A DNA stretch of 64,000 nucleotides from an uncultured Oligoflexia bacterium (GTDB taxonomy: Bacteria; Bdellovibrionota; UBA1018; UBA6935), in NCBI GenBank assembly GCA_964013565.1, contig CAXGWU010000011.1, forward strand, positions 121 to 64,120. The letters run 5' to 3'. Each line of letters begins with the position of its first letter. Within the stretch, counting starts at the first letter, position 1. The notes beneath the pieces were generated by a model. It did no database searches, was not told where the DNA came from, and worked only from the letters and a program-made list of their open reading frames with translations. This document shows positions 2,714 to 5,853 of this stretch, one piece after another. The position numbers and the translations under genes are program-made.

Positions 2714-3415
2714 ATGAGGAATGCTCTCATATCTGTAGCTTTAGCCTTTGTACTGACCGTGCCCGGAGCTTGTGCGGGGCTCATCGATTGCATTCTCGGT
2801 ACTAGGAAATCCGTAGATGCAGACAGAAAAAAACTAGTTTCGACCCTAAGCAGTAGGAATTTAAAGAAAGAAGTTCTGCAACTATTTCGTGCTGACGAAA
2901 AGCAGCTAATCGATTCGATCGGATCGTTTCCCACCAGAGCCCAATTCAACAACATGGCAGACGGATCGATTGTTTATTTTAACGGTCACTACTACGTAAG
3001 AAACGGGCAGAGAATCAAAATGGTTACAGAAGGAGATGTCCTAAAAGAGAGCTTTACCGGAAAAATTCGGGTAACGATGCTGACTCATGATAGAGCAGGA
3101 GGAGCAAGAATTGGATTCGAGCTCTTTAGGGAGAATGAAACTAAAGGTTTGGGTACCTACCGATCTATTCACGACCTTTTCCCGGACGACTTGATACCTC
3201 CATTTGAGAAATTGGGAACAAATTATGAAGATGCATCGGCCCTTCGAATTAAACAATTAGAATCCTTACTTCAAAGGGCGAGTGATTTCAAAAAAGAGCT
3301 TAACGCGACTGGCGTGTATCGCTTGCAAGGAGAAGCTGCGCGTTCGAATGTACTTCCTGCCGATATCGACCCACTGATTGATAGCATTTATTCTGAGCTG
3401 TCCCGTACCCCGTGA
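2714..3415 (+). CDS. Hypothetical secreted protein
   Basis: Signal peptide MRNALISVALAFVLTVPGACA. No family recognised. Confidence 0.45.
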   Translation: MRNALISVALAFVLTVPGACAGLIDCILGTRKSVDADRKKLVSTLSSRNLKKEVLQLFRADEKQLIDSIGSFPTRAQFNNMADGSIVYFNGHYYVRNGQRIKMVTEGDVLKESFTGKIRVTMLTHDRAGGARIGFELFRENETKGLGTYRSIHDLFPDDLIPPFEKLGTNYEDASALRIKQLESLLQRASDFKKELNATGVYRLQGEAARSNVLPADIDPLIDSIYSELSRTP

Positions 3416-3499
3416 GAGTTGATTTTTTAGAGTAATGTAGAGACCTCTTTCTTTACGAAAAGAAGTTCAGCCTACGTTTTGAATCGTTGAGGATCATCA

Positions 3500-3686
3500 A
3501 ATTTCTTCGCTCTATAACATCGGACCGGTTTCCACATCATAATGTTGCAAGAATTCCCATCGCCTAGAAGCACTACGAGGTGATTTAAAGGGGCTCCATA
3601 ACATTCGAATCAATGATCAGTGGAGAGTTATTTTTAAGTGGACCGACAAAGGTCCCGTAGAAGTTTATATTGATGACTGCCATTAG
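3500..3686 (+). pseudogene. higB: HigB (plasmid-maintenance killer, RelE/ParE superfamily) remnant: frameshifted N-terminal part and in-frame C-terminal part, no start codon
   Basis: Frame 0 from 3543 to the stop at 3684-3686 encodes LEALRGDLKGLHNIRINDQWRVIFKWTDKGPVEVYIDDCH. This matches the HigB C-terminus (LHPLKGDxxGxWSxxVxxNWRIxFxFxxGDAYxxDYxDYH). The +1 frame upstream reads …ITSDRFPHHNVARIPIA*. There is no ATG, and about 15 codons are missing between the two segments. Confidence 0.6.
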
Positions 3687-3698
3687 GAAAATACGGTT

Positions 3699-3989
3699 AT
3701 GGAAATGAAAAGAATGCCAACCACTCCTGGAGGGATATTAAAAGAAGAATTTTTAATTTCTCTTGAAATGTCACAAAAAGAACTCCCTGACCATGTGGGG
3801 TGTGACGTCAAAGTTATCAATCGAATCGTTAATGATCGTACCTCTATCACTGCAGAAATGGCTTTGAGGTTAGGGGCTGCTTTTAGTATGTCTCCCCAGT
3901 TTTGGTTGAATGCACAGCAAGCAGTTGATATTTATCGGGCCTCGAAAGTGCTCAAAGCACTCCCTAAACCTCTTAGTAAAGTTGGTTGA
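3699..3989 (+). CDS. higA: HigA antitoxin (XRE HTH; addiction-module antidote)
   Basis: MEMKRMPTTPGGILKEEFLISLEMSQKELPDHVG…ITAEMALRLGAAFSMSPQFWLNAQ matches the HigA family pattern (PxHPGEILxEEFLxPLGxSQxxLAxxxGV…ITxxxALRLxxxFGxSxxFWLNLQ). The gene immediately follows the HigB remnant. Confidence 0.7.
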   Translation: MEMKRMPTTPGGILKEEFLISLEMSQKELPDHVGCDVKVINRIVNDRTSITAEMALRLGAAFSMSPQFWLNAQQAVDIYRASKVLKALPKPLSKVG

Positions 3990-4220
3990 AACAACTCGAT
4001 GCTCGGCTAAAGAACGTGGAGCTTCACAACTATTTTGGCGATCACAAGCCCCTGGGCGATGGATTGCTTGAGTTATAAGTGGAAGAATGGAAGGCGTGTT
4101 TACTACACGCTGATCGTAAAGAAGGAAGTGACCTTGGTTTTACTGGGAGGACTAAAAAATGCCCAAGAAAAAGATATCAAAAAAGCGCGCAAAATCCTCA
4201 AAAGAGAAACCTCAAGCTAA
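3990..4220 (+). pseudogene. HI1419/TIGR02683-type addiction-module killer protein, N-terminally truncated and frameshifted
   Basis: Frame A 3990-4046 reads LKQLDARLKNVELHNYFGDHKPLGDGLLEL*. The frame of 4035-4220 continues …SYKWKNGRRVYYTLIVKKEVTLVLLGGLKNAQEKDIKKARKILKR. Joined, they match the killer consensus ([36 protein letters not shown]…VLLLxGGDKxxQxxDIKxAxxL). The first ~30 aa are absent because the gene begins directly at the higA stop, and there is a frame break near 4046. Confidence 0.6.
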
Positions 4221-4485
4221 GGGGTACAAAGCAGGAACGGATGTCTCGATCGATGGCCTAAAGGACGCTATTATTGAGGCTCTATTTGAGGCAGATTACG
4301 ATACCTTCAAGGGGTGCATTGCCATCTTACTAGATAAGCGCGACTACGCTGAGATCACGGCTCGAACGGGTCTTTCTAAGAGCACCCTCTATCGGATGTG
4401 TGAACCCGATTCCAATCCCACTCTTGAGAATATCGGTAAGGTACTCAGCTATATCAATGATCTGGATTCTGCTGACGCTGCGTAG
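4159..4485 (+). CDS. HI1420/TIGR02684-type addiction-module antidote protein (HTH)
   Basis: DAIIEALFEADYDTFKGCIAILLDKRDYAEITARTGLSKSTLYRMCEPDSNPTLENIGKVLSYI matches the family pattern (AAYLxAALEDGDPxLxxxALGDIARARGMSxLAxxTGLSRESLYKALSxxGNPTxxTxLKVLxALG). The ORF is intact. The true start may lie downstream of the K-rich N-terminal extension. Confidence 0.65.
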   Translation: MPKKKISKKRAKSSKEKPQAKGYKAGTDVSIDGLKDAIIEALFEADYDTFKGCIAILLDKRDYAEITARTGLSKSTLYRMCEPDSNPTLENIGKVLSYINDLDSADAA

Positions 4486-4545
4486 CGTATAGTTCCACTT
4501 CTCGATAGTTATTTTGTAAGGTAAAAAGTGCCTGATTTCGCCATT

Positions 4546-4569
4546 TTTGATATATATTGACATATATCA
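4546..4569. promoter_or_regulatory. Inverted repeat (9 bp arms, 6 bp spacer): candidate operator or promoter element of the RelE-like/antitoxin operon
   Basis: ttgatatat-attgac-atatatcaa lies 23 bp upstream of the GTG of the RelE-like pseudogene. AT-rich TATA-like context. Confidence 0.4.
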
Positions 4570-4591
4570 AAATATATCATATTCTAATCTG

Positions 4592-4872
4592 GTGAAATGG
4601 ACGGTCAAGGTTTCCAAGAAGGCTGCAAAGCAGCTTAGGAAACTCCCTGAGAATATTCAACGGAAGATGTACGGCCTTGGCCAAAGAAATTGAAGCCAGT
4701 GGACCCGTCCAAGGTTCATGGCCCAACTACTCCAAGCTCACGGGTGGATAGACACCACTGTCATCTCAGTTACGCTTATGTGGCGGTCTGGGAGGTGGCG
4801 AGCAAGGAGATAAGACTTATTGAGGTGACATATGTCGGTAGCAGTAAAGACGCGCCGTGCTGAAAAAAAAAT
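4592..4872 (+). pseudogene. RelE/ParE-family toxin gene disrupted by at least three frameshifts
   Basis: Three different frames give successive segments: (V)KWTVKVSKKAAKQLRKLPENIQRKM…, then …LAKEIEASGPVQGSWPNYSKLTGG*, then …DRHHCHLSYAYVAVWEVASKEIRLIEVTYVGSSKD. Together they match RelE (MKWTVxFSKKAxKxLxKLPxxIQxKIxxAIEELAxxPxPxGxKKLTGxxxLYRIRVGDYRIIYEIDDExKxIYILxIGHR). Confidence 0.65.
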
Positions 4873-4879
4873 GGTTGAA

Positions 4880-5221
4880 GTTCGCATTGGGAATAAGCGT
4901 CCTCGACTTTATTTGGTTCCTCAAAGTAAGACACGAGGAATTGAATCTTTGCTTTCTGAATACTTAGCGGAAGAAAACGAATCCGTTTCGCTTGATGATG
5001 CCTTTCAACATCTCAACGATAAGTATTCTAAGCAGGGCAATGTCTTGTGCGGACTTCGCCTAAAGAAAGGGCTCACTCAGGCGGCCCTCGCCAAGAAGGT
5101 CGGTACCTCGCAAGCGAATATTGCCGCGATGGAGAATGGAAAGCGGGCTATAGGAAAAGCCATGGCACAAAAGCTAGCAAATGCGCTGGGAACGAAATAC
5201 AGCGTATTCTTGAATCGATGA
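4880..5221 (+). CDS. XRE-family HTH antitoxin (HigA-like), partner of the decayed RelE-like gene
   Basis: HTH segment LRLKKGLTQAALAKKVGTSQANIAAMENGKRAIGKAMAQKLANALG. ATG at 4880 lies directly after the toxin stop; the ORF track starts at 4832 and overlaps the toxin remnant. Confidence 0.55.
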   Translation, partial: VRIGNKRPRLYLVPQSKTRGIESLLSEYLAEENESVSLDDAFQHLNDKYSKQGNVLCGLRLKKGLTQAALAKKVGTSQANIAAMENGKRAIGKAMAQKLANALGTKYSVFLNR

Positions 5222-5769
5222 AATTCGTATTTCGTATGCCTCACATGAACCCTAAAGTTGCATTTTGGTTCTGGCTTTTTGTGTCTGGATTTGTGGGCGG
5301 ACTTCTCCATGAGGTTGGTCATTACATAGCAGGCCTGTTATTTGGACTTGAACCTACTCTAGCGTTTCAAAGCGGAGGTACCGTCGATTACAAGGTACCT
5401 CCTCAAGGTTTGATTGAAGTGGGCGCGCTGATGGCTGGACCTGTTTTTACATGGATCACAGCACTTTTCAGCTTTTTCCTTCATAAATCATTTAAGTGGA
5501 TTGGCTTTTTGTCCTTTGCACTTTGGAATGGATTATTTCGGCTCAGTGTTTTGATTGACGGACAGCGATCTGACGAAGGGAAGACATCTACCTTACTTGG
5601 CACACCATTTCTCTTTGAGGGAATCGCTGTTGGTATTTCGCTTGGATTGTGTGTCTGGTTTTTACGGCATCAGAAAATCGTTTCTAGCAATCTTCGCTGG
5701 TTGCCAGTGTATTTCATTGTGGCTGGTCTAGGTTTTCGTCTTTCATTTGACCTGTTCGCACTTTTTTGA
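5218..5769 (+). CDS. Polytopic membrane protein with HExxH motif (putative membrane metalloprotease-like)
   Basis: The ATG at 5218 overlaps the antitoxin TGA as ATGA, suggesting translational coupling. LLHEVGHYIAGLLFG contains HExxH. Several hydrophobic helices follow. The longer ORF track start at 5047 overlaps the antitoxin and was rejected. Confidence 0.45.
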   Translation: MKFVFRMPHMNPKVAFWFWLFVSGFVGGLLHEVGHYIAGLLFGLEPTLAFQSGGTVDYKVPPQGLIEVGALMAGPVFTWITALFSFFLHKSFKWIGFLSFALWNGLFRLSVLIDGQRSDEGKTSTLLGTPFLFEGIAVGISLGLCVWFLRHQKIVSSNLRWLPVYFIVAGLGFRLSFDLFALF

Positions 5770-5853
5770 CGAAGTTAGCGTTAAATTCCCATTCCCTACA
5801 GAAACGAGAGATATGAGAAGGTACCTAGATGCTATCGGAGTTCGAAGAGAGAT

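Follow-up and report, generated by a model that had tools for sequence, protein, structure and literature searches.

A decaying toxin-antitoxin island in a marine Bdellovibrionaceae genome: a RelE-like toxin pseudogene, an intact XRE antitoxin gene and an adjoining gene for a site-2-protease-like membrane protein

In a marine Bdellovibrionaceae MAG, a chromosomal island located 5' of tpiA-pgk-gap holds several decaying type II toxin-antitoxin (TA) cassettes, one of which, a RelE/XRE cassette with a dead toxin gene and apparently live regulation, abuts an unrelated gene for a rare miniature protein of the site-2-protease-like type (mini-S2P). The latter would be a chance neighbour from outside the TA family that is probably co-transcribed with the cassette, a reading to which we assign a probability of about three in four. 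All features discussed here (Table 1) lie within the window, i.e., the whole 64,000-nucleotide stretch of DNA that was analysed. All three adjacent toxins of the island are dead, each beside an intact antitoxin (3/3).

Table 1. Features of the TA island and the adjoining protease-like gene
Feature	Position	Strand	Basis
Decayed HigB remnant, only C-terminal half recognisable	~3450-3690	+	PF05015, E 1.4e-9, profile positions 49-89 only
HigA, intact	3699-3989	+	TIGR02607, E 3.6e-25
HI1419-type RelE/ParE toxin, N-terminally truncated and frameshifted	3986-4220	+	TIGR02683 on stitched sequence, E 1.8e-14, profile positions 24-93 of 95
HI1420-type antidote, intact	4159-4485	+	TIGR02684, E 8.5e-6
Predicted operator array, four TGAYATAT half-sites	4545-4579		conserved in L011, L012, L013, L017
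Sigma-70-like promoter	4557-4585	+	-35 TTGACA 4557-4562, 17-nt spacer, -10 TATTCT 4580-4585
RelE/ParE-superfamily toxin pseudogene	4592-4863	+	frame comparison, HMM, DNA alignment to intact homologues
XRE/HTH antitoxin, intact, 129 aa	4832-5221	+	HTH_3 match; homologous loci
183-aa membrane protein, predicted to be a minimal intramembrane metalloprotease of the site-2-protease (M50)-like type	5218-5769	+	profile, profile-profile and fold comparison

The RelE/XRE cassette represents a small family of RelE-fold toxins and XRE antitoxins that occurs in Bdellovibrionota and Oligoflexia, and four loci of this family besides the window (L011, L012, L013 and L017) were compared. In the first three, an intact toxin gene is located directly 5' of the antitoxin gene and the two genes overlap by 32 nt, the same overlap as in the window; L017, from a related lineage, carries an independent deletion of the toxin, with the operator and the antitoxin kept and no protease. 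A genome scan with the antitoxin alignment detects mostly generic HTH proteins and only two true family members. The antitoxin of the window is intact, as originally described: it matches HTH_3 with its C-terminal part (residues 75-123, E 2.2e-14), there is no domain match for the N-terminal ~65 amino acids, and the family profile matches HipB and other XRE structures. The gene has its own SD sequence, GAGG, at 4822-4825.

The predicted operator of the cassette comprises two forward (4548-4555 and 4558-4565) and two reverse (4562-4569 and 4572-4579) half-sites. The 9-6-9 inverted repeat previously reported upstream of these genes is present and is in fact longer, with perfect 11-nt arms (TTTTGATATAT-6-ATATATCAAAA, 4545-4572); for the 9-6-9 pattern with three or fewer mismatches, 0.07 matches are expected by chance per window vs. 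two overlapping matches observed. The half-sites extend over the -35 element of the promoter, which fits the consensus in 10 of 12 positions, and the homologous TA loci have a TAnnnT hexamer in the corresponding place; transcription would start at or beside the GTG codon of the toxin at 4592. Both operator and promoter are conserved 5' of the same TA family in five loci, namely, the window and the four loci listed above. Judging from the sequence, the palindrome very probably is the autoregulatory operator that it had been proposed to be. Because the promoter, the four half-sites and the antitoxin are all intact, autorepression by the antitoxin most likely persists.

The antitoxin stop codon indeed overlaps the start of the gene for the 183-aa membrane protein, as originally noted: the ATG of the latter (5218-5220) and the TGA of the former (5219-5221) form the ATGA tetranucleotide at 5218-5221. 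No promoter-like site is detectable on the + strand between 4600 and 5218 and no terminator-like site after the antitoxin gene, and the protease gene is not preceded by a recognisable SD sequence. The homology to the TA cassette stops about 6 nt short of the ATG of the protease gene; the antitoxin homologues end in VFL or VFF, and the antitoxin of the window ends in VFLNR. The cassette thus appears to abut the protease gene, with the antitoxin running two codons beyond its usual end into the stop codon that overlaps the ATG. If the direction of events is read correctly, the TA cassette would have been inserted beside a resident gene; no close relative of this genome with the ancestral, pre-insertion state was found. 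According to the composition profile, neither the island nor the protease gene contrasts in GC with the housekeeping genes or with each other, so that resident and imported DNA are indistinguishable by this measure, and scans for tRNA genes and Rfam families across the window detected nothing, so that no integration-site marker is evident. The protease gene probably shares the transcript that starts at the TA promoter, with its translation probably coupled to that of the antitoxin gene, and because of this it would fall under the autorepression by the antitoxin.

The original prediction regarded the membrane protein as a third component of a tripartite TA module. The linkage between the two, however, is not conserved in either direction, and this is the outcome that the original prediction itself had named as speaking against the proposal. 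There is no TA or HTH neighbour in any of the 8 contexts of the protease family (those in L001-L003, L006-L010, L014 and L015 are without such neighbours) and no protease in any of the 4 loci of the same TA family, both samples being small because the protease family has so few members and every second contig with a homologue is shorter than 2 kb. According to a search with the protease-family HMM, a protease is also absent from all TA-family loci and from 69 genome loci related to the antitoxin, and no relevant link between site-2 proteases and TA or HTH systems was found in the literature.

It could be argued that the XRE protein and the mini-S2P nevertheless form a functional pair, in which either the orphan antitoxin was exapted as a repressor of the protease gene or the HTH protein is processed or broken down by the protease, as a membrane-embedded analogue of ImmR/ImmA or of SpoIVFB/pro-sigma-K. 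We consider this unlikely. The exact ATGA overlap, the lack of a recognisable SD sequence or promoter for the protease gene, and the lack of terminator consensus between the two genes fit a functional operon as well, and the persistence of the antitoxin and its operator after the death of the toxin also is in line with such a pair. The context counts given above, however, argue against it, and L017 likewise retains its antitoxin after the loss of the toxin, so that the protease is not required to explain antitoxin retention. Furthermore, when the sequence is read by eye, the antitoxin contains no transmembrane or amphipathic segment, and nothing hints at a substrate of a site-2 protease. The likeness to ImmR/ImmA on which the original prediction drew also fails, given that no M78/ImmA signal is present in the window protein or in 18 family members, which are related to M50 instead. 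Slightly less probable still is the scenario in which, after the death of the toxin, the antitoxin and its operator were captured as a dedicated repressor of the coupled mini-S2P or, in a radical version, the HTH protein now is a target of the protease, the two forming an ImmR/ImmA-like switch embedded in the membrane; if true, such capture would represent exaptation of a TA regulator.

Under the preferred reading, i.e., chance adjacency with probable co-transcription, the 183-aa protein is best considered as a member of its own family. An exhaustive search among 1.84e9 representatives identifies only 19 clusters of this family; a word-indexed homologue search found only two proteins, so the exhaustive one was needed. 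Besides a TARA fragment that is identical, a metagenome scan with the 183-aa protein alone retrieves only one canonical S2P. The conserved motifs of the family are HExGH, GG.V, GGP..T and DG..SDE; in the window protein, HEVGH occupies residues 31-35 (nt 5308-5322) and GP..T residues 74-78. The HExxH motif, on the conservation of which the original prediction of a metalloprotease-like protein had been made to depend, is kept in every homologue whose sequence spans this region, and D119 (nt 5572-5574) and E120 are nearly invariant. A candidate 240-aa ORF with a GTG start (5047-5769) was rejected given its out-of-frame overlap with the antitoxin gene and the fact that the homologues begin near M1-M10. 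The gene for one of the homologues adjoins a CPBP gene.

Several lines of comparison relate this family to the M50 peptidases. Among the 18 family members, 16 match Peptidase_M50, albeit weakly (best E 6.4e-7), and the window protein alone has no match in Pfam, NCBIfam or PADLOC (for Peptidase_M50, PF02163, none at E<=1). Of the other families named in the original prediction, M48, ImmA/IrrE (M78) and CPBP are matched by none of the 18 members, and these assignments were rejected. The family profile matches MjS2P (3b4r) with an E-value of 3.4e-5, as well as RseP and SpoIVFB, and hhalign against a canonical small S2P yields a probability of 90% (E 1.5e-6), with D119 aligned to the Asp of NPDG. 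The AF2 model of the 183-aa protein (pLDDT 93) consists of about five transmembrane helices, a short helix and a beta hairpin, and HEVGH lies inside the first helix of the model (residues 12-41). The top Foldseek matches of this model are 3b4r (probability 1.0), SpoIVFB (0.93) and RseP (0.75), with TM-scores of only 0.43-0.47 and a best E-value of 7e-3. In M50 site-2 proteases, the NxxPxxxxDG motif in the third core helix supplies the Asp zinc ligand (PMC5249076). D119 aligns to the Asp of this motif in both the hmmsearch and the hhalign output, with the N one position off register and D114 in place of the P; D119, the Asp of a degenerate NPDG motif, is a probable third zinc ligand. Taken together, the profile, profile-profile and fold comparisons place the 183-aa family among the site-2-protease (M50)-like proteins, as a predicted minimal, divergent intramembrane metalloprotease.

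The degenerate NxxPxxxxDG motif, the lack of a PDZ, CBS or other substrate-gating domain and the modest TM-scores to solved S2P structures are compatible with a protein that is no protease, i.e., a membrane protein that retains the S2P-like core but is catalytically inert or has another function, for instance in immunity or as a scaffold. This appears quite improbable, considering that HExxH is found in all homologues covering the region and that D119, aligned with the zinc-ligand Asp, and E120 are nearly invariant, whereas in an inert protein all these residues could drift freely.

The RelE-like toxin can be traced through three reading frames, as the original prediction held when it declared the gene dead. 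The first frame runs from GTG 4592 to TGA 4691-4693, the second (4674-4748) is closed by TAG 4749-4751, and the third (4747-4860) by TGA 4861-4863; an HMM built from the intact homologues matches 4520-4690 (E 2.7e-8), 4596-4748 (E 2.7e-10) and 4651-4860 (E 5.6e-19). DNA alignment against the intact genes of L011 and L012 locates a 1-nt insertion around 4673 (TAC-G-GCC) and a 2-nt deletion at 4746 (ACGGGT--GGAT). In addition, the C-terminal Tyr that is invariant in 14 intact homologues is replaced by Cys in the window (TGC 4858-4860). By these sequence comparisons, the RelE-like gene is a pseudogene, inactivated by two indels and deprived of an invariant C-terminal Tyr, and its remaining coding capacity would be limited to a 33-aa peptide. 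The stitched toxin is still 75% identical to the intact homologues, P0049 among them. A TARA scaffold that was reported from 3 samples, an NCBI MAG and another, separate TARA contig (L085) all have the same sequence here, which makes an assembly error unlikely. That the toxin is alive, with the frameshifts being assembly or sequencing artefacts or bypassed by programmed frameshifting, is hardly credible: both shifts are +1 in direction and the stitched protein keeps the identity just mentioned, so that decay would be recent, but the same sequence recurs in the three sources, the invariant Tyr is gone too, two neighbouring toxins are broken independently next to intact flanking housekeeping genes, and no slippery or stimulatory motif is seen by eye at either frameshift site.

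No curated RelE, HigB or ParE model scores above threshold against the stitched toxin (best, TIGR02385 with E 0.3; Gp49 with E 0.025), and the intact homologues P0049 and P0051 have no Pfam match at E<=0.1. The AF2 model of P0049 (pLDDT 81), however, resembles YafQ, RelE and YoeB with TM-scores of 0.68-0.73 and a Foldseek probability of 1.0; as predicted through this model, the toxin family has the compact alpha/beta RelE fold, in which a beta strand and two helices precede an antiparallel sheet.

The TA part of this locus is textbook chromosomal toxin decay with the antitoxin kept, and a clean, well-anchored example thereof, the value of which lies in the nucleotide-level lesions, the conservation of the operator over five loci and the second, independent toxin loss in a related lineage. 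The more useful by-product is the 183-aa protein, which represents a very rare, sporadically distributed, stripped-down family of predicted site-2-protease-like proteins that is missed by the curated models and could be useful for delimiting what an intramembrane metalloprotease minimally needs as a catalytic core. The locus does not open any long-standing question: it is a case of ordinary TA decay beside a mildly interesting orphan protease family.

The cassette is similar to HigB2/HigA2 and other type II TA systems of the RelE-fold/XRE type. In HigB2/HigA2, the toxin gene comes first and is followed by the gene of an antitoxin that neutralises through its N-terminal region and has its HTH at the C-terminus. 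The window shares with these systems the toxin-first order with an overlapping antitoxin gene, a toxin family with the RelE/YafQ/YoeB fold, an antitoxin with an N-terminal non-HTH region followed by a C-terminal HTH_3 domain, and a predicted palindromic operator that overlaps the promoter. It differs in that the toxin family is missed by the Pfam and NCBIfam RelE/HigB models and in that the toxin gene of the window is a pseudogene.

The predicted protease shares with M50 site-2 proteases (MjS2P, 3B4R; SpoIVFB; RseP) the position of HExxH within the first core transmembrane helix, followed by a beta hairpin, the GP motif in the next helix and the conserved Asp aligned with the NPDG zinc-ligand Asp. 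In contrast to these proteases, it is only 183 aa long and lacks a PDZ or CBS domain, its family has the motif N-V-L-x-D-G-x-x-S-D-E, in which the N and P of NxxPxxxxDG are out of register, and it belongs to a very rare family and falls under every Pfam threshold. The Peptidase_M50B-like (PF13398) and DUF3267 putative zincins are also small polytopic HExxH membrane proteins without the canonical NPDG (PMC5249076). The 183-aa family is of this general type, and 4 and 2 of its 18 members, respectively, match the two weakly; however, the matches to canonical M50 are both more common and stronger (16/18, best E 6.4e-7), and the window protein itself matches neither.

The arrangement of an XRE-type HTH gene next to an HExxH gene on the same strand recalls the ImmR/ImmA pairs and the pairs of XRE and COG2856 (M78) genes, but in the present case the predicted protease is of the M50-like instead of the M78 type and lies within the membrane, the HTH gene comes first and the adjacency is not conserved. 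The closest parallel is with orphan antitoxins and decayed chromosomal TA loci, in which the toxin is inactivated and the antitoxin and operator persist, a situation encountered three times in the present island and once more, independently, in L017. Nothing of substance sets the present case apart from these; here, the orphan antitoxin gene apparently has become part of one operon with the unrelated gene that follows it.

The toxin-antitoxin (TA) part of this region is an ordinary decayed TA locus, and the membrane protein of 183 aa encoded after it appears, from its sequence and modelled structure, to belong to a very rare family of minimal site-2 protease (S2P)-like proteins, which gives it modest interest. 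The sequence itself recurs in other assemblies: ENA ERZ2782952 scaffold_305 (TARA Oceans, reported from 3 samples) is identical to window 3401-5800; a contig of the NCBI MAG GCA_002722705.1, with proteins named “Bdellovibrionaceae bacterium”, begins at about position 3750 and is identical from that point; and a separate TARA contig (L085) is identical over 4469-5680.

Features of the TA island and its flanks (window coordinates)
Feature	Position	Strand
MqsA-like zinc-ribbon + HTH protein (171 aa)	1255-1770	-
HTH_37 protein (124 aa)	1818-2192	-
ORF of 100 aa	2132-2434	-
HigB remnant + intact HigA module	3450-3989	
HigA, intact	3699-3989	
HI1419-type RelE/ParE toxin + HI1420-type antidote module	3986-4485	
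Promoter/operator	4545-4585	+
RelE-like reading frame, in three frames	4592-4863	+
XRE gene, intact	4832-5221	+
Membrane ORF (183 aa), ATGA overlap with XRE gene	5218-5769	+
tpiA-pgk-gap	beyond membrane ORF	convergent

The RelE-like toxin gene is a pseudogene. Joining its three frames yields a 90-aa sequence with 14 intact homologues (76-96 aa), the closest being P0049 from Bdellovibrionota bacterium FG-2 and P0050, each with 75% identity over 99% of the length. DNA alignment with the intact genes locates two lesions, one extra base at about 4673 (TAC-G-GCC vs TAT-GCC) and two bases missing at 4746 (ACGGGT--GGAT vs ACGGGCCGCGAT); unrepaired translation from the GTG at 4592 covers 33 codons and stops at 4691-4693. 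An HMM of the intact homologues is significant in all three frames (E 2.7e-8, 2.7e-10 and 5.6e-19), and the C-terminal tyrosine kept in all 14 of them is a cysteine in the window, so that the original prediction of a dead toxin spread over three frames holds. Curated sequence models barely detect this family (TIGR02385 matches the stitched toxin with E 0.3), and a Pfam scan of the intact homologues matched no family. The AlphaFold model of P0049 (pLDDT 81) matches the YafQ, RelE and YoeB structures (TM-scores 0.68-0.73, probability 1.0), so the label “RelE-like” is correct at the level of the fold.

The antitoxin, by comparison with its family, is intact as predicted: its 129-aa frame is complete, and it retains each of the 40 alignment columns that do not vary among the seven family members. 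An HTH_3 domain occupies its C-terminal part (E 2.2e-14); the N-terminal approximately 65 residues gave no match in the domain scan. Three homologues (P0022, P0024 and P0025; 57-72% identity) are each encoded directly downstream of an intact toxin gene with an overlap of 32 nt, the same as that at window 4832-4863. The antitoxin gene has its own Shine-Dalgarno (SD) sequence, GAGG, at 4822-4825.

The same pattern extends over the adjacent modules of the island, with toxins dead in three of three and antitoxins intact in three of three. Only the C-terminal half of the HigB remnant is recognisable (PF05015, E 1.4e-9; ending in NSHRLEALRGDLKGLHNIRINDQWRVIFKWTDKGPVEVYIDDCH before the stop codon), with a stop codon and a shift in frame interrupting its N-terminal part; the HigA gene directly downstream is intact (TIGR02607, E 3.6e-25). 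The HI1419-type toxin is missing about 23 residues from its N-terminus and has a frameshift at about 4075 (TIGR02683, E 1.8e-14 for the stitched sequence), and an intact HI1420-type antidote follows. Decayed duplicates of segments of these two modules lie about 4 kb upstream (236-484 and 1173-1243), and the island has undergone internal duplication or rearrangement: 269-483, frameshifted, is about 90% identical to 4267-4491 in the antidote gene, and 1173-1243 matches 3489-3559 in the HigB-remnant region at 73%. The MqsA-like and HTH_37 proteins are also TA-like, and the 100-aa ORF, upstream of and overlapping the HTH_37 gene and without a family match, might encode the toxin partner of the HTH_37 protein.

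Toxin loss of this kind is also seen in another genome. At L017 2880-3375 (Oligoflexia MAG PL23a_bin.77), a toxin of the same family was lost independently through a large internal deletion that fused the first approximately 16 codons out of frame to the last approximately 16 (ending in LVEIIYVGSREKAPY before the stop codon), yet the operator is conserved there and the 124-aa antitoxin is intact. Thus, retention of antitoxin and operator after toxin loss recurs in this TA family, and the membrane protein is not needed to explain it.

The 9-6-9 inverted repeat originally proposed as an operator is real and proved to be part of a longer, perfect 11-6-11 repeat (4545-4572); the 9-6-9 pattern is expected by chance 0.07 times per window. 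Four TGAYATAT half-sites (4548, 4558, 4562 and 4572) form an array that contains the repeat and encloses a promoter, TTGACA-17-TATTCT, matching 10 of the 12 consensus positions. In four other loci (L011, L012, L013 and L017), this TA family is preceded by an identical or near-identical copy of the central block, TTGACATATATCAAAATATATCATA, although the proteins are only 51-75% identical to those of the window, which is good phylogenetic-footprint support for the promoter/operator; the antitoxin is predicted to bind the array. Only 6 nt separate the end of the -10 hexamer from the toxin GTG, which may leave the transcript with a very short leader or none; 4580-4594 contains no SD sequence, and the geometry in L011 and L012 is similar. 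Toxins of this family may be translated from leaderless or near-leaderless mRNA. The stretch 4826-4836, TGACATATGTC, which overlaps the antitoxin start codon, is one base off the operator core TGACATATATC (4558-4568) and invariant in L011 and L012; it could be an additional candidate binding site or be constrained by dual coding together with the SD and ATG.

The predicted ATGA overlap of the antitoxin stop with the membrane-protein start is present (5218-5221), but the proposal that the membrane protein is a third TA component, or forms an ImmR/ImmA-like module, finds no support from either side. In none of eight contexts of its homologues is there a neighbouring TA or HTH gene: P0002 (three contigs) follows an Rce1-like gene, P0006 is flanked by genes for a solute-binding protein and a GAF protein, P0008 is by itself, P0010 is behind a DUF3303 gene, and no HTH ORF was found upstream of P0003, P0004, P0005 or P0007, all on short contigs. 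Conversely, the protease-family HMM detects no member in L011, L012, L013, L017 or 69 antitoxin-related genome loci; the antitoxin is followed by a hemerythrin gene (L011) or a short gene (L012) on the opposite strand, by acetyl-CoA synthetase after 350 nt (L013), or by a gene for a 257-aa protein about 210 nt away (L017). Antitoxin homologues end in VFL or VFF and the window protein in VFLNR, so cassette homology stops about 6 nt ahead of the protease ATG. The most parsimonious interpretation is a TA cassette that came to abut an unrelated gene, the ATGA overlap being a by-product. Neither an SD nor a promoter consensus was found for the protease gene, nor a terminator downstream of the antitoxin; in this genome, the TA promoter would probably drive the protease gene as well, with its translation coupled to that of the antitoxin. 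The original reading therefore stands for the dead toxin, live antitoxin, operator and metalloprotease-like protein, but not for a module that unites them.

Alone, the 183-aa protein has no matches in Pfam, NCBIfam or PADLOC scans, and only 19 proteins, mostly of 180-190 aa, were retrieved when 1.84 billion cluster representatives were searched exhaustively with phmmer (E<=1e-3). Their alignment contains four conserved motifs, HExGH, GG.V, GGP..T and WN..FRL.VL.DG..SDE. Peptidase_M50 is matched weakly by 16 of 18 members (best E 6.4e-7), and the family profile matches Methanocaldococcus jannaschii S2P (3b4r; E 3.4e-5 over 144 positions), as well as RseP and SpoIVFB. An hhalign comparison with a canonical small S2P containing HEVGH...NLIPVSPLDGG gives a probability of 90% (E 1.5e-6), and in both alignments D119 is paired with the zinc-ligand Asp of NPDG. 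The conserved HExGH and these comparisons, which group the family with site-2 proteases, agree with the predicted metalloprotease-like nature of the protein. The AlphaFold model is confident (pLDDT 93, pTM 0.87), with a hairpin at 46-58 and helices at 12-41, 65-92, 95-117, 119-127, 132-150 and 159-182; among PDB structures, Foldseek ranks 3b4r, SpoIVFB and RseP highest, but with TM-scores of only 0.43-0.47. In Cyclobacteriaceae, P0002 is encoded about 185 nt downstream of the Rce1-like (CPBP) intramembrane protease gene in three of three contigs (L001 648-2142, L002 and L003), placing two different types of intramembrane metalloprotease side by side; the contigs are probably from one organism, which makes this linkage weak.

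M50 proteases are defined by a three-TM core whose first TM carries HExxH and whose third carries NxxPxxxxDG (PMC5249076). Of these elements, the 183-aa protein has the HExxH and the Asp, but in its second motif N and P are out of register, so that, by the published definition, it would represent a pared-down, divergent M50 relative.
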